Virus record (IMG/VR): IMGVR_UViG_3300031992_000080
Location: 12,110 to 76,109 of that record
Reading direction: 5' to 3' (one strand)
DNA from: a virus
Lineage: Duplodnaviria; Caudoviricetes
DNA: 64,000 nt
Below, in pieces: positions 1,049 to 17,843 of this stretch (its first letter is position 1; the number at the start of each line of letters is the position of its first letter). Made by a program: the position numbers and the translations under genes. Under the pieces are notes generated by a model, which was given only the letters and a program-made list of their open reading frames with translations, did not search any database and was not told the origin of the DNA.

Positions 1049-1050
1049 GG

Positions 1051-1551: not shown

Positions 1552-1561
1552 GGCCTGCAGC

Positions 1562-2020: not shown

Positions 2021-2175
2021 GGTGTGATTGTGATTTGGTTTTGTGGTTTGTGTTTCCTGGTGGAAATGGTTGACTGGTTGTTCTCGCAGGTGGTAGGATG
2101 CGGCGGGTGTGTTCCACCTTGTTGGAACGATTAAGTGCGAGCCGACTCCCCTTCGGAGGTCGCTCGCGCTAGTGG

Positions 2176-2334: not shown

Positions 2335-2335
2335 T

Positions 2336-2563: not shown

Positions 2564-2595
2564 GGGTGGTTTCCTTTGGTGTCCTTGCGAGGTGA

Positions 2596-2625
2596 AATCT
2601 ACCATAGGTGTGTTCCACCTGTCAA
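2596..2625 (-). promoter_or_regulatory. Sigma70-type leftward promoter overlapping an operator
   Basis: TTGACA-N18-TAGATT with TGn extension on the minus strand; the palindromic repeat sits in the spacer. Confidence 0.6.
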
Positions 2626-2701
2626 TAGCATTTTTCGCTTTCTGCGGAATCTTTTTCATTTCTTGCGGAATGCATCTCTACGAGGCGTGTTTCGCAAAAC
2701 G

Positions 2702-2932
2702 ATGTTGTTCGGATGTTTGTTGTTCGCCGGATTGTTCCTCTCGCTGATCATCCATGAAATCAAGGCGAAGGTTTGGCAGGAGGGACGCGGAACGAATCCG
2801 AATCCGGCTGACAAACGGAAGAATCCATACGCGAACGACGAAGCATTTAACTTCAAATTCGGGTTCTGGCTTTATTTCGGATTTCTGATCATAATCCTGC
2901 TTGGTCTACTCGGCTTCGTTGAGGACGATTAG
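2702..2932 (+). CDS. Small two-TM membrane protein, divergent from early genes
   Basis: Hydrophobic segments MLFGCLLFAGLFLSLII and FGFWLYFGFLIIILLGLLGF; locally AT-rich. Confidence 0.55.
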   Translation: MLFGCLLFAGLFLSLIIHEIKAKVWQEGRGTNPNPADKRKNPYANDEAFNFKFGFWLYFGFLIIILLGLLGFVEDD

Positions 2933-4086
2933 TTCTCGTCCGGCAGGTCGTCGAGCTTGTCCGGAGGGACGAGGATTTCCGGCGGCATGACGCGCGCGTC
3001 CTCGGCCTCTTGTTGCGCGGAGGCGCCTGCTTTCGGAGCGGCCAGTCCGCACGCTTCGTCGAACCAGCTTGGCATGCCCTGGATGTTGAACACGATCGCC
3101 GTGCCGATGTTCGCGCCCTTCGCCGCTTGCGTGGCGCTCGTCTCGGCCGCTTTCCTTGCCGCGCTCACGGCGGCCGCCCCCTCCGGGTCGGCGCGCTCCA
3201 GGGCGAGTTCCAGAAGTTTGCTCTCGCGCTTTACTTGCGTCCCGATCTGCCCGTCCTCGTCTTTCGCCACGCGGCCGAAGACCGGGATTTCCTCGCCCTC
3301 GAGGACGCGGCGGCGCAGTTCGTCCTCGTAGAGCTGCTTCTGGGCGATCTGCCTCTGTTCGAGCGCGAGGTCGTAGAGCTTCTGCAGGCCGTCCGGGTCG
3401 GACTTGGCGAGCAGCCGGAGGCGCAGCATGGTGAGCCCGGCATGGTGTTCGACCTCTTCCGTCGGAAGTCCGCGAGCGAGCGCGCCGATACCCTGCAGGA
3501 TCGCCTGCTGGAAGCGGGCCAGGTGAGGTGCAAGGCCGTAGTTGCGGCGGTCCTCCAGGTTGGGGCCCGACGGCTCCTTCTTGTTGCGAGAGCCTTTGCC
3601 GTCCGCGCCGGCGCCGTTTTCCCGGTCGAGGACGAGAGAGGCGATGAGGTCGGCGGCGGTGTCCACGTCTGCCTGCTCCCCCTGCGTGTTCGGCTGGGGC
3701 CACTTGTCGAGCCATTCCGCAAGGCGGGCCGGCAGGGCGAGCGCCGTCTGCGCCTCCTTTGCAAGCCCGGTGTCGTCGAGTTGTTTCACGGGGACTACCT
3801 TCTGTTTCATGTGGCCTAGCTTCCAACGTTGGTATTTGATCGCCTCGTCCGTGTCCGCGTGACCGGGCGGCGGGTGGTATTCGGGGTTCGTCCGGGGTTT
3901 GATCCCTTCGCTCTTGTTGCCGAACTTGCGCTCGGCTTCGCGCGCTTTGTCTTCCTTGCGCGATTTCTTCCATGCGCGCCGGCCGCGCTCCATCGCGGCG
4001 GACTGGTGGCGGTCGATCTGGTTGGTTGTCTTCGGGCGGCGCCCTTCGTGCGTTCGCATGGCGGGAGAGATTCTAGCGCAGGGCAA
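2929..4086 (-). CDS. Terminase small subunit-like protein
   Basis: EDELRRRVLEGEEIPVFG...GTQVKRESKLLELALERADPE resembles the TerS motif 'RRAVEG.EEPVF...G.V.KYSD.LL.F.L....PE' as recalled; start may be 4059. Confidence 0.45.
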   Translation of the reverse strand: MPCARISPAMRTHEGRRPKTTNQIDRHQSAAMERGRRAWKKSRKEDKAREAERKFGNKSEGIKPRTNPEYHPPPGHADTDEAIKYQRWKLGHMKQKVVPVKQLDDTGLAKEAQTALALPARLAEWLDKWPQPNTQGEQADVDTAADLIASLVLDRENGAGADGKGSRNKKEPSGPNLEDRRNYGLAPHLARFQQAILQGIGALARGLPTEEVEHHAGLTMLRLRLLAKSDPDGLQKLYDLALEQRQIAQKQLYEDELRRRVLEGEEIPVFGRVAKDEDGQIGTQVKRESKLLELALERADPEGAAAVSAARKAAETSATQAAKGANIGTAIVFNIQGMPSWFDEACGLAAPKAGASAQQEAEDARVMPPEILVPPDKLDDLPDEN

Positions 4087-4097
4087 CTATTCGCCAC

Positions 4098-4127
4098 TTG
4101 ACTTCCGGCAGCCGCTGGTTGTAGTAT
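4098..4127 (+). promoter_or_regulatory. Rightward sigma70-like promoter with no downstream ORF
   Basis: TTGACT-N18-TAGTAT. Confidence 0.4.
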
Positions 4128-4194
4128 CCGCCCCGTCGCCGCAAAGCGGCGTGAATAGAAACATGTGTTGTTGCTAAAACGGCGCACAAAAGGC

Positions 4195-4230
4195 AAGCCG
4201 CCCCGGACGAGCGATCATCCGGGGCGGCTT
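4195..4230. terminator. GC-rich hairpin, likely intrinsic terminator
   Basis: AAGCCGCCCCGGA / TCCGGGGCGGCTT 13-bp stem. Confidence 0.65.
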
Positions 4231-4253
4231 CCTTGTTGCGGGCTTTGTCTGGA

Positions 4254-4511
4254 TCAGCCGATGCCGTGGTAGCCCTCCCACTTTGCGGCCTCCTCCTCGG
4301 TGACCTCCTCGATCATGCGAACATGATACATGGGGTTGACGAGGTTGATCTGCCCGTATGGCGTGCCGTCCTCCCCGACCCAGACCTGGAGCCCGTAGTT
4401 CGAGGCGGGCGAGTTGCGGGTGGAGTAGACGCGGATATTCACGCCGTCGAACGTGGTGAGCACGGCTTTGTAGCGCTTGCCCATGTCAATGTCTGGAATG
4501 ATCGGATTCAT
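4254..4511 (-). CDS. Hypothetical protein
   Basis: 85-aa ORF with AAGGAAG upstream. Confidence 0.6.
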   Translation of the reverse strand: MNPIIPDIDMGKRYKAVLTTFDGVNIRVYSTRNSPASNYGLQVWVGEDGTPYGQINLVNPMYHVRMIEEVTEEEAAKWEGYHGIG

Positions 4512-4553
4512 CTTGTTGCTTCCTTTGGTTTTGGTTGTTGTCGTTGCGTTCGT

Positions 4554-4883
4554 TCAGCCGAATTGCAGGCCGCGCGTGTGCAGGGCGTTGATTGCGTAGC
4601 GGACAACATCTGCAATCCCGACCTTGTTGCGTCTGGCAATCCGTTCAATGATCTCTTTGTCTGCGTCGGACACGCAGATTGCCGTTAGTGTCCGGCGCGA
4701 TTGTTGCACGGCAATCTTGCAGACCTTCTCGGATTTCTTGTCAATGATGTTGATCGCGACGCGAATGAGTCCGGCGGCGTCAGCTCCCATTTTCTGAAGT
4801 TCGTCAAAATTCGTCTTCTCGTCCGGCGAGAGGAGGAAGTTCACGTAGCGGGTCTTGGTTCGCGGTTTTGGCGTTGTTCTCAT
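4554..4883 (-). CDS. Tandem RHH/CopG-like regulator
   Basis: Two RHH-like units (YVNFLLSPDEKTNFDEL...LIRVAI; AICVSDADKEIIERIARRNKVGIADVVRYAI). Confidence 0.55.
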   Translation of the reverse strand: MRTTPKPRTKTRYVNFLLSPDEKTNFDELQKMGADAAGLIRVAINIIDKKSEKVCKIAVQQSRRTLTAICVSDADKEIIERIARRNKVGIADVVRYAINALHTRGLQFG

Positions 4884-4893
4884 GGCGGTTTTC

Positions 4894-4922
4894 ATATTAT
4901 GTCTTTCCCCTTTCTATGTCAA
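4894..4922 (-). promoter_or_regulatory. Sigma70 promoter
   Basis: TTGACA-N17-TAATAT on minus strand. Confidence 0.65.
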
Positions 4923-4974
4923 GCGCGCCGGGGCGGCGGTTGCCCGCGCGCCCCTTGTTGCGTGCGCTTGTTGC

Positions 4975-5274
4975 TTATGACGGCGATCCGTGGAGCGGGT
5001 CTGGGCCGCTGATCTTCCGCTTGAATCCATCCCATGCTCTTTTGGCAAGCTCAGGCATGGCTTGTTGCAGGTCGGTGAAACGGACTGTGATCGTCGGCCT
5101 ACCTCCTTTGAAGTAGAGATAGACCGTCGCATCTTGCGGCCTCACCCAACAGCTCTCCGACACCTCCGGCCAACCAATCTCGTCCGGCTCTATGTCAACT
5201 TCCGTCCCTGGTTCGTCATGCGAGAAAAGCCCAAGTTGCCCGTGCCATGTGCGGATGATTGATTTGATTTTCAT
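4975..5274 (-). CDS. Hypothetical early protein (QLGLF motif)
   Basis: GGAGG upstream of MKIKSII. Confidence 0.6.
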   Translation of the reverse strand: MKIKSIIRTWHGQLGLFSHDEPGTEVDIEPDEIGWPEVSESCWVRPQDATVYLYFKGGRPTITVRFTDLQQAMPELAKRAWDGFKRKISGPDPLHGSPS

Positions 5275-5276
5275 GG

Positions 5277-5588
5277 TTAGTCCTCCTTGTTGTTGTTGTT
5301 GTTGTTCGTATTGAAGTTGTTGTTCGTCTGGAATTGGACATGACAATCGGCCAGTCTTTTCGTGAATAATCTCATTCGTTCTTCCGTTTCTCGTTCTCCG
5401 CACATGGAACGGACGATCATTCTGTTTCTCGGTTCTGCCGCATCCTCTCTCTGAATGGGAGCGAAATCCGCTTCCCATAGGTCTGCCGCAGAAGTCCCGA
5501 CGAACATTTCGTCAAAGATTTCTCCGGCCTGTCTGAACGCAGGATCGTCACGGAAATCAAACGTCATTGTGGTTGTTGTCTTGCTCAT
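5277..5588 (-). CDS. Hypothetical early protein
   Basis: 103-aa ORF with GGAG RBS, coupled to neighbours. Confidence 0.55.
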   Translation of the reverse strand: MSKTTTTMTFDFRDDPAFRQAGEIFDEMFVGTSAADLWEADFAPIQREDAAEPRNRMIVRSMCGERETEERMRLFTKRLADCHVQFQTNNNFNTNNNNNNKED

Positions 5589-5845
5589 TTGCGAGTCTCC
5601 TTGTTGTGCTTCTTGTTCATGACGGCGTTCGTCTGGTCGGGCTGAAACTTGGCGAGGCAGATCGCGCGCGTCGGGATGCAGAACCGCGCGCAGTTTGAGT
5701 CCGTCCCGTGGATCATGTCGGGGCGGATTTCTGCGAGGTCTTCCGCCCGCCGCACGGCAACGGAAAATCCGTTCGCGAGGTAGATGGAGAGCTGATTTCC
5801 TTCGGGCCAGTTGGCGAGGAAGGTCTGGATGTGTTTCGGGTTCAT
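5585..5845 (-). CDS. Hypothetical early protein
   Basis: 86-aa ORF with AAGGA RBS. Confidence 0.55.
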   Translation of the reverse strand: MNPKHIQTFLANWPEGNQLSIYLANGFSVAVRRAEDLAEIRPDMIHGTDSNCARFCIPTRAICLAKFQPDQTNAVMNKKHNKETRK

Positions 5846-5913
5846 GGTTGTGGTTTCCTTTGTTGAGTGCGCCCCGCCGTCATGGCGGGGGCTTGCTTGT
5901 TGTCGGTTGCGGC

Positions 5914-6456
5914 CTAGCGGATCGGGCGTCCGTAGCAGTCCTTTCCGTCTTGCGCGGCATTCCGCGCCTTCTCAATGTCCGCGAGGTCGTCAAGCCCCCA
6001 CGGGAAGGCTTCGTATGCGGCGCGCGAGACTGGGAAAAGCTCGCAGAGCTTATCTGCGGCGCAATGATAGAGGGTGCTCACGATCGCTTTCGCTTCCGTC
6101 TTTTCGTAATCGTCCGTCTCGCAAGACTGGTAGTTGTAGCATCCAAGAGCCTTGAGCAAGAAGCCGATGCCAGTAAGCCCGTTGAAGTCGGGCGCGCCAT
6201 CGTTGACTTCCGCGAGGGAACCGGGCTTGATTCTGTCGCACCGGGTGTCATAGTGATACTCCGGCGCGGATTTGTTCTCGTTGTAGCGGAAATTCACGGA
6301 GCGGTAGTTTTCGTTCCACAGAATCTGCCCGATCTGGTCTGGGTCTTCTTCGGCGCAGACGAGTTCGCCGTTGTTGTTGATTGCCCGGATTCCAAAGTGC
6401 TTCGCCGCAGAAACGAGGAAGTCAATGTGGGCTTTGCTTACGATCCATGCGCTCAT
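5914..6456 (-). CDS. Conserved phage hypothetical protein
   Basis: GQILWNENYRSVNFRY and LKALGCYNYQSCE motifs recalled from other phage proteins of unknown function. Confidence 0.6.
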   Translation of the reverse strand: MSAWIVSKAHIDFLVSAAKHFGIRAINNNGELVCAEEDPDQIGQILWNENYRSVNFRYNENKSAPEYHYDTRCDRIKPGSLAEVNDGAPDFNGLTGIGFLLKALGCYNYQSCETDDYEKTEAKAIVSTLYHCAADKLCELFPVSRAAYEAFPWGLDDLADIEKARNAAQDGKDCYGRPIR

Positions 6457-6501
6457 GGTTTGTGTTCCTTTCTTTGTTGTTGGTTGTTGGTTGGGTGGTG
6501 G

Positions 6502-6744
6502 TTAGTGCTTCGGTGCGTAGAGCTTGCAGAGTTCGTTGAATTCCTCCGGCGTGAGCGGTTCGTCCGGCGCGTCCGTGTCGGTGTAGGTCACGCCGCACTC
6601 AAGGTTCTTGAACGCGTCAACGGCGCGATCCCGCTCCTCTCCGTCCGTCCCAGCGATCCACTCCATGAGGAAAGCGCGGTATTCGCGCTTGGTCTTGAAG
6701 AGATGTTCTTGCCCGTGGGCTTTGATTCCTATTTTCTTTTTCAT
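6502..6744 (-). CDS. Hypothetical early protein
   Basis: 80-aa ORF with AAGGA RBS. Confidence 0.6.
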   Translation of the reverse strand: MKKKIGIKAHGQEHLFKTKREYRAFLMEWIAGTDGEERDRAVDAFKNLECGVTYTDTDAPDEPLTPEEFNELCKLYAPKH

Positions 6745-6750
6745 GTGTCC

Positions 6751-6963
6751 TTATGCGTGAAAGAGATCATCCATCGCTTCGCGGATCACCGCGTTCACCG
6801 CTTCAGAGATTGCGAGAGCGGCGCGAAATCCACCCTCGTTCATGCCGCTCAACTCGTCACCGATCATGTTGTTCATGGTTGTGATCGCACGATCCAGTCC
6901 CTGCCAGTAGGCTTTTCTGGCGGTCTGGTCTTGTCTGATTTTTGCCTTCATTTCCGTTGTCAT
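6751..6963 (-). CDS. Hypothetical early protein
   Basis: 70-aa ORF with GGAG RBS. Confidence 0.55.
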   Translation of the reverse strand: MTTEMKAKIRQDQTARKAYWQGLDRAITTMNNMIGDELSGMNEGGFRAALAISEAVNAVIREAMDDLFHA

Positions 6964-6996
6964 GGTTTGTTCTCCTTGTTGTCTTTGTTGCGCGCC

Positions 6997-7416
6997 TTAT
7001 TCGGCGGCTCGCTTGCCGAGTTCAAATCCGGCGGCTTCCCCGCGCGCGTCTTTCCACCGCCCGACAACCTCCGCGAGTTCGTCCTTGTTGGTGACGAGTT
7101 CGCCCCAGAAGTAGACGCGGCTTGCGCTTGCGTTCGCTTCAATGTTGAGCGCGTCAAAGTAGGCTACGCGGTCGGGACTGTCCAGATTGTATGGGTCAAG
7201 CCCCGCTTCCTCTGCGACCTTGTAGGCGGCATTGAGCGCGAGATCGTTAAAGAGCGCGTTGCCGACGGCATCGTAAGGCGGCGGGAATTCCTCTAGTTTC
7301 TCCGCGACGAGATCGGGCGTAATGTCCCCGCCCCATGCGCGCGCCCATTCATCAAGCGCGGCGGTGTCCTCACGCCCCAAGCCGAGGGCGAGACTGATTG
7401 CGGTTTTCGTGTCCAT
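6997..7416 (-). CDS. Hypothetical acidic early protein
   Basis: 139-aa ORF with GGAG RBS. Confidence 0.6.
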   Translation of the reverse strand: MDTKTAISLALGLGREDTAALDEWARAWGGDITPDLVAEKLEEFPPPYDAVGNALFNDLALNAAYKVAEEAGLDPYNLDSPDRVAYFDALNIEANASASRVYFWGELVTNKDELAEVVGRWKDARGEAAGFELGKRAAE

Positions 7417-7549
7417 TGTTCTTCTCCTTGTTGTTCTGCCGCGCGGGATGTTGGCGGCGTTTGTTGTTGTTGACTTCCCGCGACACGCCCCTGCGTGTTT
7501 CGGCGCGTAGTCGGCGCGCCATCATCGGGCGGGAGGGGCGTATCGTGTG

Positions 7550-9067
7550 CTAGGCGGCAAGGCTCCTTTCCAGTTGCTTGCGGTGTTTGCGGAACAGTTC
7601 GGCAAGTCTCTGCGCAACTTCGCGCGCGTCTGCGGGCGGCGTTGTGTTCTTTCGGGCGTAGCATTGCTTCACCTTCCATCCGTCCCCGATCTCAATGTCC
7701 ACTCGCCCTTCGTCCTTGCCAGCAAGGGCGAGACACACGCAGTTTTGCGCGGCCATGTTCGCGGAGTAGGATCCGCCGCCAATGCAGTTGCCCATGTTGT
7801 TTCCTTCGCGCAAGAATTCATCCTGCGAGGTGAGCCAGACGATCTGCCAGTCTCCGAGATTGAGCTTATTTTCGTTCTTCTGGACAAGCGCGCGAAGCTT
7901 CTCCACGAATTCCGCGATCAGCGCGTCCCGCTCCGCTTGCGTCCGCGCGTAGATTGCGCGTTGCTTTTCAAGCTCCTTCTCCCTGCGCGCGTTCGCACGC
8001 GCCCATTCGCGCTCCCGCCGCCGCATTTCGCGCATCTGCTTCTTGTGGCGAATGCGTTCCGCTTTCTTGCGCGCTTCGTAGAACGCGGCGAAGTCGGTCG
8101 GGTAGGCGGTGCAACGGGCGCGCAGGTCAAGCCCTTCAAGCTTCGCGTTCGTCATGGCTTCGCAATAGCGCCCCGCGTCAATGCCGTGCTTCACGCAGTA
8201 GGCGTAGGCGGCGCGGATCGGGATTTCGGTCGGGCGAGACTGCCGGACGGCGGAGAAGAACACGCGCGGCGCGTTCCTTGCGCGTTCGCGCTCCTCCACA
8301 TCCGCAAGGGTGCGCTTCCCGCTCCGGCTCATCCACACTAGATCGTTCCAGTTGTAGCGCGTGGCGAGTCCGGGATTCTGGATCAGCAGTTTCATCAGCA
8401 CCTTGTTGCGGGCGAGTTCCGCACATTTCTTCGGGTTGCGGACGGGAGAAAAGCGGTAGGCGTTGAAGAGTCCGGCCTTGACAAGAAGCTCGGTCTTCGG
8501 GTCTTTGGCGTAGGCGTAGAGGATTTCCGCCAGTTGCTTTGCGTAGTTCGGGCAGTAGTTAGGCCAATGCTCCGTTGCGAGGAGCGCGGGATCATCTGCC
8601 GCAAGCGGCTTCCACCCGCAGTAGCGGTAGCGGGAGCGGGCGAGGAGGTCTGCGCGGGCGAGGCAGTCGGACGGCAAGGCCATCGTCACGCCGTTCCAAT
8701 CAAACCAGTTGTCCTCATCATCTTCGCGCCACGCCTGGTGGCAATAGTAGCCGGAGCAAGTCTGGTAGATGTTGTGCTTCGTGTTGTAGGCAACATTCCA
8801 GTCCACACACCAACCCGCAATCCCCTTCCAGTTGAGATCGTGGATGTAGATTCTGCCCTTCGCCGGGTTGAATTCGGCAATGGGCTTGACCTCCTTCTCT
8901 CCCCTGCGGCTTGCGACCGTGACGAGTTCCAGTCCGTCACGCCCCACCTTGCGGAAAAGGGTTGTGAAGATCGTTGTCCTGCTTTTGTCGGGAATCTTGA
9001 CTTTCTCCCGATATTCGCGCGCCGCTTTCGTGACGGCGCGCAGTTCGGTCTTGTTGAGTTTCTTCAT
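7550..9067 (-). CDS. PcfJ-like domain protein
   Basis: C-terminal FLREGNNMGNCIGGGSY...IEI...KVKQCYARKN matches the PcfJ pattern (EG..M.HCV..Y...Q..G..N); follows a PcfK-like gene. Confidence 0.7.
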   Translation of the reverse strand: MKKLNKTELRAVTKAAREYREKVKIPDKSRTTIFTTLFRKVGRDGLELVTVASRRGEKEVKPIAEFNPAKGRIYIHDLNWKGIAGWCVDWNVAYNTKHNIYQTCSGYYCHQAWREDDEDNWFDWNGVTMALPSDCLARADLLARSRYRYCGWKPLAADDPALLATEHWPNYCPNYAKQLAEILYAYAKDPKTELLVKAGLFNAYRFSPVRNPKKCAELARNKVLMKLLIQNPGLATRYNWNDLVWMSRSGKRTLADVEERERARNAPRVFFSAVRQSRPTEIPIRAAYAYCVKHGIDAGRYCEAMTNAKLEGLDLRARCTAYPTDFAAFYEARKKAERIRHKKQMREMRRREREWARANARREKELEKQRAIYARTQAERDALIAEFVEKLRALVQKNENKLNLGDWQIVWLTSQDEFLREGNNMGNCIGGGSYSANMAAQNCVCLALAGKDEGRVDIEIGDGWKVKQCYARKNTTPPADAREVAQRLAELFRKHRKQLERSLAA

Positions 9068-9077
9068 GTCGCACCTC

Positions 9078-10079
9078 CTAGAAATCAAAGAGGGTCATCT
9101 GCGGGTCGGGCTTCTTCGGCGCGGGCTTCGGGATCACGGGCGGTTTGTAGTTGCCGGACGGCGGTGTGTAGGGCTTGGGCTTCGGCGTCGGCTTCCACTC
9201 GCAGTTGAGAGAGTCCTCCTCAAAGTAGTGCATGAGTTCGCAGAAAACATCCTCGTCCTCCGCGAAGTATCCGCGCGCGCCCTTCTCGGCTTTTTTCTGC
9301 GCCCATTCGTAGAGGTGATTCGCCGCGCCTTGCAGTGTTTTCTTTCCCTCTATCTTCGCGCGGAGTTCTGGGCTTGCGTTCTTGTCAAAGTAGGCTTTCA
9401 GCCGCTCTTCCATGTGGTTCGTGGCTTTCCACTCCCACTTCGGCGGCTTCTCCTCCTCCGGCTTGTCGGCGGGCTTCTCGTCCGTCTTGTCCTCGCCGTC
9501 CTTGTTGTCCTCCGGCTCGGCGGGATCGGGCGGCGTGTTCTCGCCGTCCGGCTTCTCGGCGGTCTTCTCTTCGCCGCCGAAAACGGACGGGAGGTTTCTC
9601 TGCAACGCCGTGTCAAGAGAGATGTCTCCCCGCTCGTCATTGGTCAGCGGACGGATTGCGACTTCGCCGGAGTCAAGGATCGTCACTTTGTCCTCGCCGT
9701 CCGTGCAGTAGTCCCGCTCGTTCTCGTCATCGTAGACTCGCCATCCGTGCGACTCCGCGACCTCCATCCAGTTGCTCGGCGTGTCCCCGCTCTCGTTGAG
9801 CCAGTCCGCAAAATCCTGCAAGGTCTTGATCTCCGGCGCGGTCTTGTTGTCGGTCTGCGGCGCGTTCTGCGCTTCGGGCGCGGGCGCGGTATGCTCCGGC
9901 TCGGCGGCGGGTTTGGCGGGCGCGGGTTCGTCCGGCTTCTCGTCCGGCTTCGGCGCGTCCGTGGTCTGCGGCGCGGGCTTCATCTGCGCCATCATCTGCG
10001 AGACTGCGGCGAGTTTCGCCGCCATCTCTTGTTTCATGCGCTCAAGCTCCGCAAGCGCGTTCTGTGCTTCTTCGTTCAT
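9078..10079 (-). CDS. PcfK-like / AcrIIA9-family domain protein with long acidic N-terminal extension
   Basis: KKTLQGAANHLYEWAQKKAEKGARGYFAEDEDVFCELMHYFEE; ends QMTLFDF; adjacent to PcfJ. Confidence 0.6.
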   Translation of the reverse strand: MNEEAQNALAELERMKQEMAAKLAAVSQMMAQMKPAPQTTDAPKPDEKPDEPAPAKPAAEPEHTAPAPEAQNAPQTDNKTAPEIKTLQDFADWLNESGDTPSNWMEVAESHGWRVYDDENERDYCTDGEDKVTILDSGEVAIRPLTNDERGDISLDTALQRNLPSVFGGEEKTAEKPDGENTPPDPAEPEDNKDGEDKTDEKPADKPEEEKPPKWEWKATNHMEERLKAYFDKNASPELRAKIEGKKTLQGAANHLYEWAQKKAEKGARGYFAEDEDVFCELMHYFEEDSLNCEWKPTPKPKPYTPPSGNYKPPVIPKPAPKKPDPQMTLFDF

Positions 10080-10202
10080 GGGGTTTTGCCCTTGTTGTTG
10101 TTCTTGTTGTGTGGCTTGCCATCATCGGCGCGCGGGTTGCCGTCCCTGCGCGGACACGCGCCCCGCCGGAAAGGACGGCGGCGGGGGCGTGTTTCGGCTT
10201 GT

Positions 10203-10976
10203 CTACTTCGCCGCCCCGCCCTCCTTCTTCTCGCCGTTGTTGCGGATCGCGTCTTGGATCGTCTGCGGCGCGCCCTTCGGCGTGTGCGCGCCGGAAATGA
10301 TCTGGAAGATGCCGTCGCGCTCCTCGGTGCGCGTCTCCTCCATCTCCATCAACTCCCCGCCGTTGGCTGTGAGCTTCGCCGCGTCCTCGTCCCCCATCGT
10401 CATGCACTCAACGATGGCGGCGAGACTGGCGCGCGTCCATTGCTCTGCGATTACGCCGACGAGCGCAAGGTCGGGAATGCTCGTTGTCTCGCCATCCGCG
10501 TTGTGTCCGGCGAACACCGCCGCGCCCGCAATCAGCCGTTCGCGTCCGGCGTTGAGGAAAAGCGCAGTTCCGGCGGGGTTGACTCCAGAAACATCCCAGA
10601 ATGCGTCCGCAATCCACATATCGCAACCGCGCCCGATGTCAACGCGATCAATCATCGCGCCGATATGTCCGCGCAAGTGTTCGTAGGTCTGCCCGCGCGA
10701 GACTGCCCACAACTCCAAGCGCGTCTCCGCGTCTCCGTCCTTGTTCTCCGTGAACGGAAACGCGGTGAGGAGCAGGGCTTTCTCGTTGTCTTCCGTCCGC
10801 AGGGGATGCCCCTGCGCGAAAGTCCATGCGATTGCGGTCTTGAAAAAGTCCTTGCCGACAAGCCGCGCTTGGATTGCGCGGCAACGCGGATCGTGCGCGT
10901 CCGGGTTTTGAAGAATTTCGGAGGTGTAGATTTCGCGCCGGAGCAAGCGCGGCGCGTTGTTGTTGTTGTTTTTCAT
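10203..10976 (-). CDS. DUF3846-like domain protein
   Basis: LRGHIGAMIDRVDI...VNPAGTAL...IAGAAVFAGHNADGETTSIPD resembles DUF3846. Confidence 0.5.
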   Translation of the reverse strand: MKNNNNNAPRLLRREIYTSEILQNPDAHDPRCRAIQARLVGKDFFKTAIAWTFAQGHPLRTEDNEKALLLTAFPFTENKDGDAETRLELWAVSRGQTYEHLRGHIGAMIDRVDIGRGCDMWIADAFWDVSGVNPAGTALFLNAGRERLIAGAAVFAGHNADGETTSIPDLALVGVIAEQWTRASLAAIVECMTMGDEDAAKLTANGGELMEMEETRTEERDGIFQIISGAHTPKGAPQTIQDAIRNNGEKKEGGAAK

Positions 10977-11059
10977 GGCGTTTTGCCTTTCGGGGTTGGG
11001 GTTTCGTGAAAATGGTGGGATTGCGGTATTGCGGCACATGGCTTGCAGGCTCCTTGTTG

Positions 11060-11140
11060 CTAGTTGTTGATCCCTGCGGCGGCGGCGTGTAGAATCACGG
11101 CGGCGGCGGTGTAGATTGCGGCGAGAATCGCGGCTTTCAT
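11060..11140 (-). CDS. 26-aa hydrophobic peptide
   Basis: MKAAILAAIYTAAAVILHAAAAGINN; AC-rich leader; fills an intergenic gap. Confidence 0.4.
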   Translation of the reverse strand: MKAAILAAIYTAAAVILHAAAAGINN

Positions 11141-11164
11141 TGTGTTGTTCGTGTTGGTTTCCGG

Positions 11165-11944
11165 TTAGTCCGCATAGTCCTCTGTGTAGGTCTGCGCGGG
11201 GTTGTAGATGTTCGTGCGGTCGGCGTAGTGGCTCGGCTTGGTGCGGAAATATCCGCTTTCGTCCGGGCGGCGCGTGATCGGCTTCGCGCCCGCTTTGATT
11301 CGGTATCCGAACGGGCTAGACGGATCGGGAATCGGGCGGACGCGCGCTTGCATGAATCCGCATTCTTCGCCCGTCTTTTCTAGCTCAATCAGAGAAAGGC
11401 TCTTGCCCGTATCCTTCAAAACGCCGTAGAAGTCATAAAAAGTCATGGAATAATGGAAGTGCGAAACAATCACTTTGCCCGCAAGGCTCTTCGCCTTGTT
11501 GCCGTCCGTCTCCGGCGGCTCTGGCGGCGTGTTCTTCGGCTCGGTGGCGCGCTCGTCCTTGTTGCGTTCTGGCGCGGGATCGTGCGGCGGCGTGTTCTCC
11601 GGCTTCCCTTCGCGTGCGTCCGGCGTGTCTGTAAATAAGTCCATTTGCCCGGCGCGCGGAAAAATCTCGGTCTGCCAAGTGCAAGGCGCGAATCCCGCGC
11701 GCGTCTGGCGCGCGAGACTGCCGCTTGCGATTGCGGCGCGCAAGTAGTCAGCTTGTGCGTCCGTGAATTCCGGCGCGCGGTGCGTCTGCGCGTGCTTATC
11801 TGGCATGGGGTTGCCGAAAAGATCAACGGCGGCGGCGGGCGTGGTGTGCGCGCTCGTCGGCGTTGTCGCAATGGCGGCTTGGATTGCGGCGGGGTTCAAG
11901 GCGGCGGCTATTGCGGCGGCAATGGCGGCTTGCGTGGTCTGCAT
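11165..11944 (-). CDS. Hypothetical early protein (QMDLF motif, C-terminal beta domain)
   Basis: 259-aa ORF with AAGGA RBS. Confidence 0.6.
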   Translation of the reverse strand: MQTTQAAIAAAIAAALNPAAIQAAIATTPTSAHTTPAAAVDLFGNPMPDKHAQTHRAPEFTDAQADYLRAAIASGSLARQTRAGFAPCTWQTEIFPRAGQMDLFTDTPDAREGKPENTPPHDPAPERNKDERATEPKNTPPEPPETDGNKAKSLAGKVIVSHFHYSMTFYDFYGVLKDTGKSLSLIELEKTGEECGFMQARVRPIPDPSSPFGYRIKAGAKPITRRPDESGYFRTKPSHYADRTNIYNPAQTYTEDYAD

Positions 11945-11964
11945 GGCGGGCGTTCCTTTCCGGG

Positions 11965-12387
11965 CTAGGCGGTGGCTCCGTCCGTGAAGCGGAGAATGTC
12001 GGCGGCGCGCTCGTCAAGTCTCGCGGCGCGGTTCACTTTGTCTGCGGCGTTCTGCGCGTCTGTGCATTCCGCCAAAACGAAAGCACCGGGCGCGGGGGCG
12101 GTGTTGTATCCCGTCCGGTCGCGGTCAATGATGAGATACACGGCGAAACGCGCGCCGGAATCGGGCGCGGTGTGCTCTGGCTCAATGGTGGCGGTTGTCC
12201 GCGTGCCGTCCGTGTGGTAGTCCCGGAATCCGGCAAGGTCGGCGGCGAGTTCGTCCGGCGTGGCGGCGGCGAGTTCGCGCGCGTATTGCGTGGCAATCTC
12301 CTCGCAAAACTGCGCGCGGGCGGCGCGGCGTTTCGTCTCCGGCGAGACTGCGGCGGGCGTGGGCGTGGGCGTGGCGGTGGTGTTCAT
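11965..12387 (-). CDS. Hypothetical early protein
   Basis: 140-aa ORF with AAGG RBS. Confidence 0.55.
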   Translation of the reverse strand: MNTTATPTPTPAAVSPETKRRAARAQFCEEIATQYARELAAATPDELAADLAGFRDYHTDGTRTTATIEPEHTAPDSGARFAVYLIIDRDRTGYNTAPAPGAFVLAECTDAQNAADKVNRAARLDERAADILRFTDGATA

Positions 12388-12418
12388 GGTTTTTTGCCTT
12401 TCGTGTTGTTCTGGTGGA

Positions 12419-13276
12419 TCAAGCGGCGGTTGCGTGGCGGATGATTCTGGAAATTCCGGATATGATTTCCGCTTGCATTTCGCGCGGGCTTGCGGTAAAT
12501 GGAATGTAGATCGTTTGTGCGGGGTCTAGTCCAAGTGCCGCGCAAGCGGCGGTTGCCCCGATTGCATGGCAACGCCCGCTTGCGCTGTCAAAGTCCGAAC
12601 CAGTCACGGCGTGAAGGTCTTGCAAGTCCATGTGTCCAATCCTGCGGGTCACTTCGGGGCGGGTTGCATACCATACGGCGGAGAGGTCTAGCGGTTCGCC
12701 GTGGCGTTTGGCGGGATAGTAGCTTGCAACTTCGCGGCAAGGGCGGCGGGTTTCAACGGCGTTCTCAATCCATAGGGCGGTAGAATATCCTCGGCGCTCA
12801 AGCGCCGAAACGGCGGCGGCGGCTGTCGCGCCCCGCTTCTCAAAATCAGTTAGCGGGGCGGTGCATGGGAGACAAGCGGCGAAGATGATAGTTGCAAGTT
12901 TCGCGGGGCGTGGTTGGCGGCGGCGACGCGTAAAAAAGCGCGCGTCTCCGTTTCCCGTCATAAAGTCCAGTAGGCGGGCGGGGTCTAGTGTCTCTCCGTC
13001 CTCGGCGTGTTGCCACTTCGCGCGCGTGTCCGTTCCGGTGATACCGTCTTCAATCTGGGCGGCAATCGTTTCGGCAAGGCGCGGGATTTTCGCGCTTGGC
13101 TCGTCCGTGGCGAGTGCGGGCACGGCGGCGGCAAGGGTATTTCCGTAGAAATTGCCCCTGCGGTTGCCTAGCTCGGCGGCATAGCGGGAAATTTGGCTTG
13201 TTCCGCGCGCCTTGTCAAGCGCGTTTTGGACGAAATCGGCGGTTGCCGGGAAAATCCGTGTGAATGGTTCGGGCAT
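12419..13276 (-). CDS. VWA/CobT-like partner of MoxR AAA ATPase
   Basis: DGETLDPARLL...ATIIFAAC...AVSALERRGYST...KRHGEPLDL...RRIGH pattern; directly follows the AAA gene. Confidence 0.5.
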   Translation of the reverse strand: MPEPFTRIFPATADFVQNALDKARGTSQISRYAAELGNRRGNFYGNTLAAAVPALATDEPSAKIPRLAETIAAQIEDGITGTDTRAKWQHAEDGETLDPARLLDFMTGNGDARFFTRRRRQPRPAKLATIIFAACLPCTAPLTDFEKRGATAAAAVSALERRGYSTALWIENAVETRRPCREVASYYPAKRHGEPLDLSAVWYATRPEVTRRIGHMDLQDLHAVTGSDFDSASGRCHAIGATAACAALGLDPAQTIYIPFTASPREMQAEIISGISRIIRHATAA

Positions 13277-13292
13277 GGCGTTTTCTCCTATC

Positions 13293-14426
13293 CTAGCGGG
13301 TCGCGGCGATAAATTCCTTGCGCTTCTGTTCTGGCATTCCTTCGGAAAAATCGTCCAGAATTGCGCGCGCGGTCTTGAAAAGTCCGGCGGCGGCAAGCTT
13401 TGAATAGTCAATAACCGTCCGGGTTGAAAAGAAAGTGCGGGTTATGTGGCGCGTTTCAACGGCGCGGCGCGCGGTGTCTCGCGCGTCAATAACGGCGGCG
13501 GCTTTCGCTTCGTCTGCCGTGATGGCGAGCGCAAGGCGCTTTTCAAGTTCGGTATCGTAGTTGACTGGAAGATAGCGGAAGCGGTTTAAACTGGCGGAGT
13601 CAAGGGCCGTCCTGCCTGTGTAGTCCTGTGTGGCTCCGTGCCCGGTGGTGTTTCCTGCGGCGAGAATGTAGGCCTGCGGATTCTTCTTGATCCTGCCTAG
13701 GATCGGAAAGGAAAGCTCGCCGTTGGCAATTGCCGAATTGACGACAATTGCCGTTTGCGGATCGGCGGCGTCCAGTTCGTCAAATAGGAAAACTCCGCCA
13801 TTGCGATAAATGCGCGTGAATTCGCTTTCGTGGAACGAAAACGCAAGTTGCCCGTTCTCGGCGGGCTCTGGAATGAGTTTCCCGAAAATGTCGCTTGCGG
13901 AAACTTCGCCGGAAACGGAGAGACTTCCAAAACGCGCGCTTTCGTCCATGTCCGGGAAAAGGACGGCGGCGGCTTGGCGCGCAAGGTAGGTTTTTCCGCT
14001 CCCTGTCGGGCCGTAAAGGTAGCAGTTGACTCCGCAACGGATCCGCGCCAAAAGCTCGTTCAATGCGGGGTGCGCGGCTTCCCCTTCGGGAAGGGTGATT
14101 TCCTTCGGGATTTCGGGAAGGTGGAAATGCGTGATGTTCGGCGCGTGGGCGTTGGCGGCGGCTTCGGCGGCGGCGCGCGCGGCCTCGGCGGCTTCGTCCT
14201 TCGCCGTCTGGATTTCGGCGCGCAATGCGTCAATTTGCGGCGCAAGGGCGGCGGCGGCGCCGTTGGCAATGGCGGCAACGGCTCCGGCGGCGGCGGCAAG
14301 GGTCGCGGCGGGATCGGCGGGCGGGGTCTGCATGGTCTGCGGCGGGGTCTGCTTCGGGGCGGTGTCTCCGCCGAAAAGATTGCCCTGGCGCGCGGCTTCG
14401 GTAAGTTCTGCAATGGTGGTGTTCAT
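13293..14426 (-). CDS. MoxR/CbbQ-like AAA+ ATPase
   Basis: Walker A GPTGSGKT, Walker B FLFDELD, AAGNT sensor, LDSASLNRF arginine finger. Confidence 0.8.
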   Translation of the reverse strand: MNTTIAELTEAARQGNLFGGDTAPKQTPPQTMQTPPADPAATLAAAAGAVAAIANGAAAALAPQIDALRAEIQTAKDEAAEAARAAAEAAANAHAPNITHFHLPEIPKEITLPEGEAAHPALNELLARIRCGVNCYLYGPTGSGKTYLARQAAAVLFPDMDESARFGSLSVSGEVSASDIFGKLIPEPAENGQLAFSFHESEFTRIYRNGGVFLFDELDAADPQTAIVVNSAIANGELSFPILGRIKKNPQAYILAAGNTTGHGATQDYTGRTALDSASLNRFRYLPVNYDTELEKRLALAITADEAKAAAVIDARDTARRAVETRHITRTFFSTRTVIDYSKLAAAGLFKTARAILDDFSEGMPEQKRKEFIAATR

Positions 14427-14452
14427 GGTGTCGGGGGTGGTTGGTTGGGTGG

Positions 14453-14815
14453 TTAGGCAATCTCCATTTGTTCGGGAGCGATCCTTGCTAGAAAGCGCGT
14501 CCACGCGCAAGCGGCCGGGAATCGTCCGGCGGCGTGGGCAAGGGGGTTTGATTCGGCACGCGCGCAAGCCGCGCGCAATGCGTCAAGCCGTCCCCTTTGC
14601 ATTGCGTCTTTAATTTCGTCAACTTCGCGGACAAGGGCGGCGCGCGCGGCGTTCGGGCGCGGCACGGAAAAAGCGGCGTTCTCGCAAGCGCGCGCCGCTT
14701 CCCGGTAGATCGCAAAAACATAGTAGGCGCGAGAGATTCGCGCGGGGGTGGCTGTCTGCACAAGCCGCTTTTTATGTTCGCGGCGCGCGGCGTTCGGGCG
14801 GGGGGTGGCGTTCAT
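14453..14815 (-). CDS. Hypothetical protein, first gene of the early operon
   Basis: AAGG RBS just downstream of a strong promoter. Confidence 0.55.
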   Translation of the reverse strand: MNATPRPNAARREHKKRLVQTATPARISRAYYVFAIYREAARACENAAFSVPRPNAARAALVREVDEIKDAMQRGRLDALRAACARAESNPLAHAAGRFPAACAWTRFLARIAPEQMEIA

Positions 14816-14847
14816 GGTTGGTGCCTTTCGTGGTCTTGCGGGGCGGT

Positions 14848-14876
14848 AGTCTAGCATAGTCCGCTTTTTATGTCAA
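14848..14876 (-). promoter_or_regulatory. Strong early sigma70 promoter
   Basis: TTGACA-N17-TAGACT, extended -10 TGn, A-tracts upstream (UP-like). Confidence 0.7.
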
Positions 14877-15237
14877 GCGTTTTTTTATGTCTTTTTTTCT
14901 GCGTTGTTCTTTCTTGCGAAACGCCCCTTGTAGAGACTCTTTTCGTAAAATGCCGTTTTCCATTTTAGCCTTTATTCATGGGCTTTTCATGCGTTCTCGC
15001 CTTGCGTTTTCGCGCGTCTCAATCATGCGCGTTTTTCGTAGTTCTAGGCGTGTCTAACAATCGGCTTTTTAGCTTCGTCTAACATAGCTAAATCCCGCTA
15101 AATAGTAAATCTGTCTTTACAATTGTTTGGCGCGTCTAAAGCATGGTCTGGCGGGGTTCGTCCGGCGGGGTCTGCTGGCGTTCCGGCGGGGCGGTTCTCT
15201 CGCTCGTTCGTCCAGCGTTCTCCCCTCCCCTCGCGCC

Positions 15238-15420
15238 GGGGAAGGTGGGAGCGGGGAAGGGGGTAGGGGGTAGGGGCGGGGGGTGGATGGGGGTAGGTAG
15301 CAGGGCAACGGCAACGGATCGGAGTAGGCGTGTAGGTAGGTAGGTAGGTAGGGCGGTAGCAGGGTAGCAGGTGGCGCGCGCGGGGACGGCAACGGCTGGA
15401 TCGGGGCGGGGAGATGGGGC
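15238..15420 (+). repeat. G-rich / (GGTA)n low-complexity tract
   Basis: GGGGGTAGGGGGTAGGGGCGGGGGG at about 15259-15283 and GTAGGTAGGTAGGTAGGTAGG at about 15332-15352. Confidence 0.7.
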
Positions 15421-15773
15421 AAGGCTCGTCAAGGCGCGGCAAGGCTCGTCCGGGCTTCATGCGGGTTTCTGTCTAGCGGTCTGGAAGGGCGGCGGGTAGT
15501 CTGGCGGGATTGGGGGGAGGGCCGCGCGCGGTGCGGTGTGTTGGCGTTTTTCGGGGCGCGGGTCTATGTCGCATAATCCCGCATTCCGGCGCTTATAAAC
15601 TCGCCATGCGTGCGGCGGATTGCGGGCGGGCGGGCGTCCGGTGGGACTGTTGCGGGCCGTCTGGGTATCCGTCCGGCCTGCCCCGTCGGGCCGTCGGGGC
15701 CGTCCGGCGGGGGTTGTTGCGGCGTTTTTAAGCCGTTTTTCGGCAAAAAACACGCCCCGCAAAATTATAAGTA

Positions 15774-15802
15774 TTGATTTTTCAATATGTTATGCGGATA
15801 AT
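15774..15802 (+). promoter_or_regulatory. Candidate late promoter overlapping an inverted repeat
   Basis: TTGATT-N17-GATAAT; ATTGA-TTTT-TCAAT palindrome over the -35. Confidence 0.45.
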
Positions 15803-16145
15803 GGGGAGGGTTGAAAGCCTTTCTGGAAGGATCAAAGGAAGGCGCGCGGGCGGGAATGAGAAGGGAGGGGAGGACGGGCAAGGCGGGCGGCATGGGGGAG
15901 CGGGAAGGGAGGGAGGAAGGGAGGCACGGCTACCCCGTCCCCCTCCCCGACCACACCGCCGACCGCCGCCCCGCGCGGGTCCTGCGGGGGACTTTCTCGC
16001 ACACTGAGGTCGAAGTTTGAAAAGGAGCTACTGCTTGGGACGGGTGGGTCGTGTGGGCGCACCTGCGAGGGCGCGCGCGTGCGGGTGCGAGGTTGGTGTC
16101 CGGATTTTTTTCGGGAATGGTTGCCGTGGTGGATACTGTTTTGGC

Positions 16146-17843
16146 ATGGGGAACCAAGCGAACAGAGGGCTGCGGCGAACGGCTGCGGGGACGCGGAAGG
16201 ATCGCGTGGAGCGGTCGACGCGCGTGATTGGATACGTGCCGACGCCGACGGGGCTGCGGTTCCACAACAGCCGTGCGCTCGTGAAGGGTGCGATGGGGCC
16301 TGTTGGGAGCGGCAAGTCGGTATTCTGCTGCGAGGACATCTGGATAAAGAGCTGCACGCAGGTGCCGATGGCGCAGATCGACCCGGCGTGGGGGATGCGG
16401 GTGCGATACAGCAAGTGGCTTGTGATCCGGAACACGTATTGGGACTTGCAGCAGACGACGATCAAGACGTGGCTGGACTGGTTTCCGCAGACGAAGATGC
16501 GGGAAAGCCAGCCGTTGGGCGGTGTTCTGGAGTTCGAGCATCCGAGCAACGAGCGGCTTCGCGCGGAGGGGCGGGAAGACGAATGCACGGCGGTGCGGAT
16601 CGAGCTGGTGTTTCTGGCGCTGAACAAGGAAGAGCAGGTGCGGCACCTCAAGTCGCTGGAGGTGTCCGGGGTGTGGATCAACGAGGCGAGCGAAGTGCCG
16701 CTCAAATACGTGAGCCGTGCGTTCGAGCGAACGGGGCGTTTTCCGAGCAAGAAGGCGGGCGGGCCGTTCAAGAACCTGGGGATGATCATGGACACGAACC
16801 CGCCGAGCGACACGGGGTGGTGGTACCAGCTTGCGGAGGTGCGGCGGCCGCAGGGCTACGAGTTCTTCCGGCAGCCGCCGGCGGTGCTGCGGCGCGAGAA
16901 GGGTGGCCGGATCTGGTACGAGCCGAACAAGGGGCAGGATCCCGGGATTCCCGCGGCGGAGAACGTGGAGAACCACAACGAGGGGTGGGAATACTACATG
17001 CGGCAGACCCGTGACGGGGACCATGCGCGGATCAAGGTGTTCCTGATGGGGGAATACGGGACGACGGTGAGCGGAAAGGCGGTGTATCCGCAGTATTCGG
17101 ACGAGGCGAACTACCTCGACGAGACGCCGGAGCCGTGGTGGGGGCTTCCGCTGTTCATGGGGACGGACTTCGGGAGGACGCCGGCGACGGTGCTTTTGCA
17201 AGTGCTTCCGTCCGGGAAGATCGTGGTTCTGGACGAGATATGCGGGGAGGACATGACGATCGGGGAGTTCTGCGAGCAGCTTCTCCTTCCGCGTCTCATC
17301 ACGAAATACCGGTTTGCGGAGGGGATGCGGGTGATGAACTTCGCGGACCCGGCTGGGGCGAAGCCGAACGAGACGGACGCGCAGGGCGCGATCTACCGGA
17401 TGAACGAGCTGGGGATTCCGACGGTGCCGTGTCCGGTGACGGGCAACAGCCCGCTGCTGCGGATCGAGGCGGTCGCGAGCGCGCTTCGGCGGCGGATGGA
17501 CGACGGGAGCGCGGGCCTGGTGCTTTCGCGCAACTGCCGGCGGCTGCGGGAGGGTTTTCTGGGGCGGTATTACTACAAGACGGCGGCGAATTCGGACGCG
17601 GCGGACGAGCGCGTGGCGGCGAAGCCGGACAAGAACATGTTTTCGCACCCGCACGACGCGCTGCAATACGGGGTTTTCGGGGCGACGCACCAGAGCGGGG
17701 AATCGATGTTCGACGTGAGCGGGCGAAGCAACCGGCTGTGGGTGCCGGACGGATTCGGAGGCTACCGGCTCTCGGGCCCGGTGCCGACGGCGGGCGGCGC
17801 GTGCGGGACGGAAGCCCGCATTTCCATGGCGGGCTTCTGCTGA
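16146..17843 (+). CDS. terL: Terminase large subunit
   Basis: Walker A GPVGSGKS, Walker B VWINEASE, nuclease GTDFGRTPA and SHPHDALQY. Confidence 0.9.
   Translation: MGNQANRGLRRTAAGTRKDRVERSTRVIGYVPTPTGLRFHNSRALVKGAMGPVGSGKSVFCCEDIWIKSCTQVPMAQIDPAWGMRVRYSKWLVIRNTYWDLQQTTIKTWLDWFPQTKMRESQPLGGVLEFEHPSNERLRAEGREDECTAVRIELVFLALNKEEQVRHLKSLEVSGVWINEASEVPLKYVSRAFERTGRFPSKKAGGPFKNLGMIMDTNPPSDTGWWYQLAEVRRPQGYEFFRQPPAVLRREKGGRIWYEPNKGQDPGIPAAENVENHNEGWEYYMRQTRDGDHARIKVFLMGEYGTTVSGKAVYPQYSDEANYLDETPEPWWGLPLFMGTDFGRTPATVLLQVLPSGKIVVLDEICGEDMTIGEFCEQLLLPRLITKYRFAEGMRVMNFADPAGAKPNETDAQGAIYRMNELGIPTVPCPVTGNSPLLRIEAVASALRRRMDDGSAGLVLSRNCRRLREGFLGRYYYKTAANSDAADERVAAKPDKNMFSHPHDALQYGVFGATHQSGESMFDVSGRSNRLWVPDGFGGYRLSGPVPTAGGACGTEARISMAGFC

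Follow-up and report, generated by a model that had tools for sequence, protein, structure and literature searches.

Results

A block of the leftward arm is free of TCGA

We studied a TCGA-free block in the genome of an uncultured phage, within a stretch of 64,000 nucleotides (the window) that corresponds to bases 12,110-76,109 of the 76,109-bp IMG/VR viral record IMGVR_UViG_3300031992_000080. The record was rated complete by CheckV, and all coordinates below are those of the window unless they are marked as genome. The phage is of a short-tailed type with an SU10-like portal and adaptor, and its AT skew and open reading frames (ORFs) divide the genome into two arms. The leftward arm covers genome bases 1-28,118, that is, the window up to approximately 16,000, and the rightward arm opens with the large terminase, which is followed by the SU10-like portal, the head genes and a polyvalent protein of 5,542 aa that is presumed to be carried in the virion. 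The block and the two reference genes of the rightward arm are as follows:

4451-16009, no strand: TCGA-free block of 11,559 bp, which also lacks GCWGC, GGWCC, GCCGGC and CCGCGG entirely or almost entirely (exact counts)
16146-17843, plus strand: large terminase (phrog_2) of 565 aa, with its true start at 16,146, the first gene of the packaging and structural arm
45450-62078, plus strand: polyvalent protein of 5,542 aa with LPD23, ART-PolyVal and ddrB-ParB domains (domain matches), in which site density is normal

A preliminary description of this DNA, made by reading the letters, had reported six TCGA in the first 620 bp and none between the sites at 4447-4450 and 16010-16013, and exact counting gave the same result on both points. 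The genome has 484 TCGA sites, 391 of them in the window, and none falls within 4451-16009. The gap between the sites at 4447 and 16010 is 11,563 bp long, while the second-largest gap is 786 bp, and the probability of such a maximum gap is approximately 1e-32. Base composition predicts 38 sites in the block, close to the earlier rough estimate of 35, and the expectation is 58 from dinucleotides, 24.6 from a trinucleotide Markov model and 73.5 from the density outside the block. Outside the block, the ratio of observed to expected TCGA was 1.09.

The same phage was also present in ENA and Logan assemblies, with 99.99% identity over the 15.8-21.7 kb compared (approximately 6146-27843). An assembly artefact was thus ruled out as the cause of the TCGA-free block, since the same sequence came from three independent samples. 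The source reads are ENA ERZ27257202, SRA SRR9006730 and JGI 3300028833. Judging by their labels, the samples of the contigs with this phage and its relatives may belong to metagenome studies of the ruminant gut; a host with 63% GC would be unusual in that setting.

Synonymous codon usage does not account for the missing sites

In the codon-shuffle null model, synonymous codons were permuted in 500 shuffles that left both the encoded proteins and the codon frequencies of the block unchanged. The block genes contained no TCGA against 36.3 ± 4.3 by shuffling, and the lowest count in any shuffle was 25; when the codons were redrawn from the usage of the left arm, 53.6 ± 4.2 sites were expected. 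The shuffles also gave 32.3 GCWGC, 19.4 GGWCC, 16.8 ACGT and 82.2 GGCC for the block genes, where 0, 0, 1 and 21 were observed.

The preliminary description had pointed to codon pairs that avoid TCGA, and quantitative analysis agreed with it. Before codons other than GAN, the block favours ATC, TTC, GTC and CTC, which make up 64, 72, 44 and 42% of the respective codon families, but before GAN, where NTC-GAN would spell TCGA, NTC was used in 0 of 67 cases, compared with 39-98% in both flanking arms. Similarly, TCG is never followed by A in the block genes, and CGA never follows T. The avoidance of TCGA is surgical, in that codon choice departs from the norm solely at pairs where a site would otherwise appear. 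Codon or dinucleotide bias alone, which had been named beforehand as a possible explanation, was ruled out as the cause by the composition and Markov expectations, the codon shuffles and the NTC-GAN usage, and the depletion remained after each of them.

Fifteen palindromic words are depleted in the same block

A scan of all 4-6-mers, which includes the palindromes that had been proposed as a check, showed that TCGA is one of 15 palindromic words significantly depleted in the same block after Bonferroni correction, with nearly the same borders. GCWGC was absent (30 expected; gap 4108-16169), GGWCC occurred once (20 expected; gap 3549-15978) and ACGT three times (29.5 expected; gap 5561-16234). 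Among the 6-mers, GCCGGC and CCGCGG were absent (14 and 8.8 expected), and CGGCCG and GGCGCC were found once each (14.6 and 8.5 expected). Depletion was less complete for CCWGG (3 observed, 15.6 expected), CGWCG (15 observed, 79 expected) and GGCC (23 observed, 66 expected). The control words behaved differently: GCSGC occurred 150 times (125 expected) and GATC 59 times (64.5 expected), and GCGC, CGCG and CATG were normal or raised. All purged words are palindromic, and the W-centred 5-mers were lost while their S-centred twins were retained.

Seven main words (TCGA, GCWGC, GGWCC, ACGT, GGCC, CGWCG and CCWGG) were profiled in 750-bp bins, and two zones of the block could be told apart from each other and from the flanks:

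5912-15519, no strand: purge core, with 0-4 sites of the seven main words per 750 bp against 15-35 in most flanking bins (750-bp profile)
4451-5911, no strand: partial zone without TCGA, GCWGC and GGWCC but with near-normal GGCC (9), ACGT (3) and CGWCG (6) (counts and profile)

One flanking bin of low density, 2251-3000, had 8 sites of the seven main words, and the rest of the genome carries approximately 1,900. The non-coding stretch at 14,858-16,009 was as purged as the genes, which speaks for selection on the DNA and not on the codons. Only palindromes are affected, W-centred words are lost while S-centred words are kept, and non-coding DNA is included; this grammar of the purge is what marks selection by Type II restriction enzymes, which recognise DNA as dimers.

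There are two tiers of avoidance, since other words are avoided over the whole genome and not only in the block. The genome-wide ratio of observed to expected was 0.18 for GTAC, 0.25 for CCATGG, 0.26 for CTCGAG, 0.32 for ACGCGT and 0.41 for GTCGAC, and ATCGAT was rare throughout, with 8 sites in the genome. The preliminary description had inferred a nuclease with a TCGA core, of the TaqI, SalI, XhoI or ClaI type; the bare 4-mer of the TaqI type is in agreement with the block, while the 6-mers of SalI, XhoI and ClaI are avoided or rare in the genome as a whole and do not distinguish it. With about 15 words purged, TCGA among them, the selecting pressure is a broad set of restriction specificities and not a single enzyme.

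GTAC itself was found at 21 sites genome-wide, whereas the Markov expectation was approximately 119 outside the block and 5.9 within it. The distant relatives have many GTAC sites, but their early arms have 3-7 times fewer than their structural arms. CTAG was relatively enriched in the block, with 19 sites against 16 in the 48-kb right arm, and many of them lie at minus-strand gene ends within 5914-14490, where a TAG stop is preceded by C.

Predicted promoters, terminator and non-coding junction

A scan for sigma70-like consensus matches gave 8 in the region 3,000-17,000, where 2.4 ± 1.8 were expected, and 1, 1 and 1 across the other 52 kb scanned, which is at or below expectation. The best three, which agree with the consensus at 10 of 12 positions, are all oriented leftward, at 15793-15764, 14876-14848 and 4922-4894. 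These predicted elements, the terminator-like hairpin at the left edge and the junction at the right edge are listed here:

15764-15802, no strand: back-to-back divergent sigma70-like promoters, leftward ATAACA-18-TATAAT at 15793-15764 and rightward TTGATT-17-GATAAT at 15774-15802 (consensus match)
14848-14876, minus strand: best sigma70-like promoter, TTGACA-17-TAGACT with a TG extension and an A-rich upstream tract, heading the coding part of the block (consensus match)
4894-4922, minus strand: internal sigma70-like promoter, TTGACA-17-TAATAT, upstream of a 113-aa gene (consensus match)
4195-4230, minus strand: intrinsic-terminator hairpin at the left edge, with a 16-bp stem, 11 G-C pairs and a U-rich tail (fold)
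14858-16009, no strand: junction, largely non-coding, in which AT-rich patches with promoters occur beside degenerate G-rich repeats; candidate site of the virion termini (sequence and profile)

Consensus sigma70 promoters and a divergent region had already been noticed in the block; indeed, the leftward block starts at a divergent junction that has the genome's only good sigma70-like matches. The 76-nt stretch with the terminator folded at -46.6 kcal/mol (z = -6.5 against shuffles) and gave the strongest terminator-like hairpin in the scanned regions. The edges of GCWGC, GGWCC, GCCGGC and CGGCCG lie at or beyond this hairpin. A stem-loop at 5872-5890 was rejected as a classic terminator, as it has no U-tail on the minus strand.

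No gene was called at 14,857-15,811, and the only ORF in the remainder of the junction is a doubtful, low-complexity one of 69 aa at 15811-16020 on the plus strand. The restriction words resume approximately 140 bp upstream of the terminase. This non-coding DNA of approximately 1.3 kb beside the terminase would be the obvious place for the termini. Between 15140 and 15960 the plus strand is strongly G-rich, with degenerate GGGGTAGG / GGGAGGG repeats and GGCAAGGC units spaced by 10 nt. The junction could fold into G-quadruplexes, and it may serve in packaging or as a terminal region.

The ENA contig (76,266 bp) has 41,882 bp upstream of the terminase, compared with 28,254 bp in our record, and because it spans the ends of the record and breaks elsewhere, inside the giant gene, we infer from the assembly coordinates that the assemblies are permutations of a circle, whose contig ends would be arbitrary and uninformative on the virion termini. 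A megablast search found no match among cultured phages, and the nearest terminases were at most 35% identical and likewise uninformative on the termini.

Genes of the block

The genes listed here, from the junction to the terminator, are all on the minus strand:

14453-14815, minus strand: first early gene, encoding 120 aa without a match to any family; the early arm of the relative L017 has a homologue (family and relative searches)
13293-14426, minus strand: AAA_5 / CobS-MoxR-type ATPase, 377 aa; its syntenic orthologue in the relative L014 (54% identity) is unpurged (family match)
12419-13276, minus strand: DUF7192 protein, 285 aa; its syntenic orthologue in L014 (37% identity) is unpurged (family match)
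10203-11039, minus strand: protein of 278 aa with a weak DUF3846 match; L014 orthologue with 35% identity (weak family match)
9078-10079, minus strand: acidic protein of 333 aa, pI 4.6, 22% Asp+Glu, with a weak PcfK-like match (weak family match)
7550-9067, minus strand: PcfJ-like protein, 505 aa; the homologue in the relative L020 is equally purged (family match)
4554-7416, minus strand: seven small ORFs, of 70-180 aa, none of which matched a family (family searches)
4254-4511, minus strand: last gene before the terminator, 85 aa; it lies outside the TCGA purge (3 TCGA) and is free of GCWGC and GGWCC (counts)

The block had been described as a cluster of small early genes, and small ORFs are indeed present, but it also encodes proteins of 505, 377, 333, 285, 278 and 259 aa. 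Approximately ten ORFs of the block have no family match at all. Structure models of the block proteins were of low confidence (Atlas pLDDT 0.38-0.46; pLDDT 37.8 in an AlphaFold single-sequence model of the 180-aa protein). The composition of the acidic 333-aa protein makes it a speculative candidate for a DNA mimic. No nuclease domain was detected in the block, and searches of the phage found no gene for a DNA methyltransferase (PF00145, PF01555, PF02086) and none that was thymidylate-synthase-like or TGT/DpdA-like.

Many block genes on the minus strand of 5270-12420 have a common AC-rich leader (ACAACAACAA), after which come GGAGG and ATG, and the 8-mer ACAACAAC has 13 copies on the minus strand of the block and none outside. 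The shared leader and GGAGG suggest tuning for efficient early translation.

Right after the stop of the PcfJ-like gene there is an element of approximately 80 nt (7440-7560, minus strand; 1120-1240 in L020) that is 94% conserved between the two phages, against 83% for the adjacent coding DNA. By hand, the L020 copy reads as a type I hammerhead (CUGAUGAG, a helix, GAAAC, ACACGC/GCGUGU and GUC), while the copy of the present phage has CCGAUGAU in place of the first hammerhead motif, CUGAUGAG. Rfam called neither copy and reported nothing for 7472-7534 or L020. At 10110-10199 (minus strand), where two block genes are separated by a gap, Rfam gave a sub-threshold Hammerhead_II match of 23.4 bits against a gathering score of 37 (E = 0.49 in 12 kb).

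Beyond the block, the left arm at genome 8400-11558 (locus L010) encodes a RecE-like exonuclease, a single-stranded DNA-binding protein (SSB) and a well-conserved phrog_3657 protein of unassigned function. A scan of 12 left-arm ORFs, within a genome annotation that was not exhaustive gene by gene, showed no DNA polymerase, and no tRNA was found in the phage sequence.

Relatives show where the purge came from and how it is kept

The relative L014, whose terminase is 51% identical, has a leftward arm that is syntenic with that of the present phage. The divergence of its AAA_5, DUF7192 and DUF3846-like proteins (54, 37 and 35% identity) is similar to that of its portal (39%) and capsid (40%). The L014 orthologues carry normal site loads; for example, its AAA_5 gene has 11 TCGA, 11 CGWCG and 9 GGCC, compared with 0, 0 and 4 here. 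Because these syntenic orthologues have diverged like structural genes and carry normal loads, the purge arose in situ, on genes of vertical descent.

L020 is a 2,071-bp JGI contig with 83% nucleotide identity over the PcfJ-like region, and it shows the same purge, with 2 sites against 33.6 ± 4.4 by shuffling. The 206 substitutions between the present phage and L020 created no new TCGA, GCWGC, GGWCC or ACGT site, where a crude neutral estimate gives approximately 13.8 (P approximately 1e-6). Thus, selection against these words is ongoing, and it has kept the words out through approximately 17% divergence. The closest full-length relative, P0121, has 86% PcfJ identity and lies on a 77,235-bp contig.

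Nothing comparable was found in L014, L016, L007, L003, L008, L006, L002 or L005. In L017 (82% terminase identity; 7.1 kb), GTAC was absent, TCGA was normal in the early arm and the GCWGC gap was only marginal. By this comparison, the purge is a property of this lineage and not a fixed trait of the clade.

Discussion

Early exposure to host restriction as the probable cause

The block is probably DNA that must act while host restriction is still active, either because it enters first or because it is pulled in by host RNA polymerase, and its products or the giant virion protein would then protect the rest of the genome. In this mechanism the block would be an early unit transcribed by host RNA polymerase, from the sigma70-like promoters at the terminase junction to the strong terminator. 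Its DNA would meet the restriction enzymes of the host while the phage has yet to act against them, by staged entry as in T5 or by transcription-pulled entry as in T7. Continuing natural selection keeps it free of Type II sites. The block products or the virion-borne polyvalent protein would then shield the many sites of the seven main words elsewhere, and GTAC and the several 6-mers that are avoided throughout the genome would presumably correspond to enzymes that the phage cannot neutralise. Both the first entry of the block DNA and an anti-restriction function encoded by the block or the giant protein, as the preliminary description had proposed, are what we infer from this pattern.

Several observations weigh against this account. 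The purge forms no monotonic gradient from the junction: GGCC is partly back at 13.6-15.7 kb, and at 4.45-5.9 kb the purge is partial. The TCGA edge lies one small gene (4254-4511) before the terminator and not at it, and the promoter and terminator calls are consensus matches only. The assemblies appear to be circular permutations, and the argument from entry fails if the phage uses headful packaging with random ends (PMC12455610). None of the known anti-restriction families (Ocr, ArdA and others) was matched in Pfam, PHROGs, NCBIfam and PDB sequence searches, and relatives at 52-82% terminase identity have no comparable purge in their early arms.

Other explanations of the block

The lack of a gradient also fits an explanation without ordered entry, in which the whole genome enters at once and may be cut, and the early genes, as a restriction-proof cassette, stay intact on one fragment that still expresses takeover or anti-defence proteins, to the benefit of co-infecting or later genomes or of repair by the RecE-like recombination functions of the phage. 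The purge does follow the transcription unit rather than an end, a circular assembly is compatible with headful packaging, and the left arm encodes the RecE-like exonuclease and SSB. However, a lone linear fragment would be open to host exonucleases, the non-coding junction is purged for 1.15 kb beyond the first gene, and the experimental precedents are all of staged entry (PMC10644984, PMC12455610), so we consider this course unlikely. In a further form of it, the early operon works after the chromosome has been cut and the doomed genome opens the cell to sibling phages, as a DNA-level counterpart of cooperative anti-CRISPR immunosuppression, which we regard as decidedly unlikely. The pattern might instead reflect ancestry and not position, if the block had been imported by recombination from a phage or conjugative element that avoids these words throughout its genome. 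The sharp borders, the sub-zones with different purge sets, the gene families known from conjugative elements (PcfJ, PcfK-like, DUF3846), a codon usage slightly more T-ending than in the arms and the differing early-arm gene content among relatives would all be expected from such a mosaic. But three block genes have unpurged syntenic orthologues in L014 with the divergence of structural genes, the site-free state was actively kept across the 206 substitutions, the GC content and GC3 of the block resemble those of the flanks, and the avoidance of GTAC is common to the block and the rest of the genome, which together make import rather improbable.

Two other explanations place the cause in the phage itself. 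Early phage nucleases might cut host DNA at the purged words, so that the block must survive them, and in T5 the way in which the first-step DNA escapes the degradation of host DNA that it triggers is itself unresolved (PMC10644984). Such self-avoidance is very unlikely here, as it would require approximately 15 distinct specificities, the block has no detectable nuclease domain, and the same sites number in the hundreds elsewhere in the phage genome. Alternatively, a protective modification might cover the whole genome except the block, so that only the block would need to avoid sites. This idea was prompted by other phages whose early regions differ in modification and has no direct support in the present genome; we know of no mechanism for excluding one region from modification, and with no gene found for any of the modifying enzymes searched for, it is scarcely credible.

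Comparison with known systems

Early exposure of the block, the account that we favour, has counterparts among studied phages. T5-like phages are subject to Type I and Type II restriction only when sites lie in the first-step-transfer (FST) region (PMC10644984), and Murciavirus (Autographiviridae) is spared by a Type I system if its early-injected region lacks the motif, despite copies in other parts of the genome (PMC12455610). The premise of the preliminary description, that first-entering DNA of phages and plasmids is depleted of restriction sites, therefore holds for these phages but not in general for plasmids, as a 2026 survey of 1,751 plasmids showed that leading regions are not consistently depleted in 4-8-bp palindromes (PMC13478746).

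We repeated the block-versus-rest test on the T5 FST region (1-10,219) and the T7 class I region (1-7,588), and each had one significant word with approximately twofold depletion, compared with 15 words here, several of them at zero. Like the T5 FST region, the block is an early-gene block of approximately 10 kb under host-type promoters, which here are consensus matches, and it is site-free while the rest of the genome carries the sites; in T5, sites outside the FST region are tolerated (PMC10644984). The T5 FST region forms the first-entering end of the genome, inside a long terminal repeat. Unlike T5, the phage has no homologue of A1, A2 or Dmp (tblastn, best E = 0.17), and its portal and adaptor are of the short-tailed SU10-like type. 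Its distal border is a 16-bp-stem hairpin in a short intergenic gap (4195-4230) and not a long, repeat-rich, non-coding injection-stop region, and its long non-coding stretch lies at the proximal side, at the junction.

The T7 class I region is leading DNA with host sigma70 promoters that ends at a terminator (TE, 7,588) and is internalised and expressed first; in the block, promoters and a terminator are predicted from the sequence. Unlike T7, the phage has no T7-type RNA polymerase or Ocr by tblastn with the T7 proteins, a firmer result than the Pfam searches, whose controls were silent in control genomes. The words purged here are Type II palindromes, whereas the Murciavirus case concerns a Type I motif (PMC12455610). 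Thus, the block appears to work like the T5 FST and T7 class I regions but is not a member of either by descent, because no homologues of T5 A1, A2 or Dmp, of T7 RNA polymerase, or of Ocr or ArdA were found.

The leading regions of conjugative plasmids are also first-entering DNA that is rich in anti-defence genes, although plasmids enter in single-stranded form. The block shares the PcfJ, PcfK-like and DUF3846 families with them, and the giant protein shares ddrB-ParB and ART-PolyVal, but nothing here resembles a transfer origin or a relaxase. With the genome-wide avoidance of palindromes in phages, the block has in common the selective agent and the kind of word, as the GTAC ratio of this genome illustrates, but its main effect is regional, with TCGA close to its expected frequency outside and at zero inside.

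If the reading by entry is true, the sequence alone would delimit the first-acting segment of an uncultured phage, and the purged words would list specificities present in the host population, namely TaqI-, TseI-, AvaII-, MaeII-, HaeIII-, Hpy99I- and EcoRII-like in the block plus RsaI-like genome-wide. The 16 unannotated early genes and the giant polyvalent protein would then be a place to seek new anti-restriction functions. Restriction pressure on part of a genome is already known from T5 and, recently, from T7-like phages, and the block is a very clean example of this known principle. It shows how far regional pressure can go, with approximately 15 words purged and three frequent 4-5-mers fully removed (TCGA, GCWGC and, apart from one site, GGWCC), within sharp borders and with the selection still visible between relatives.

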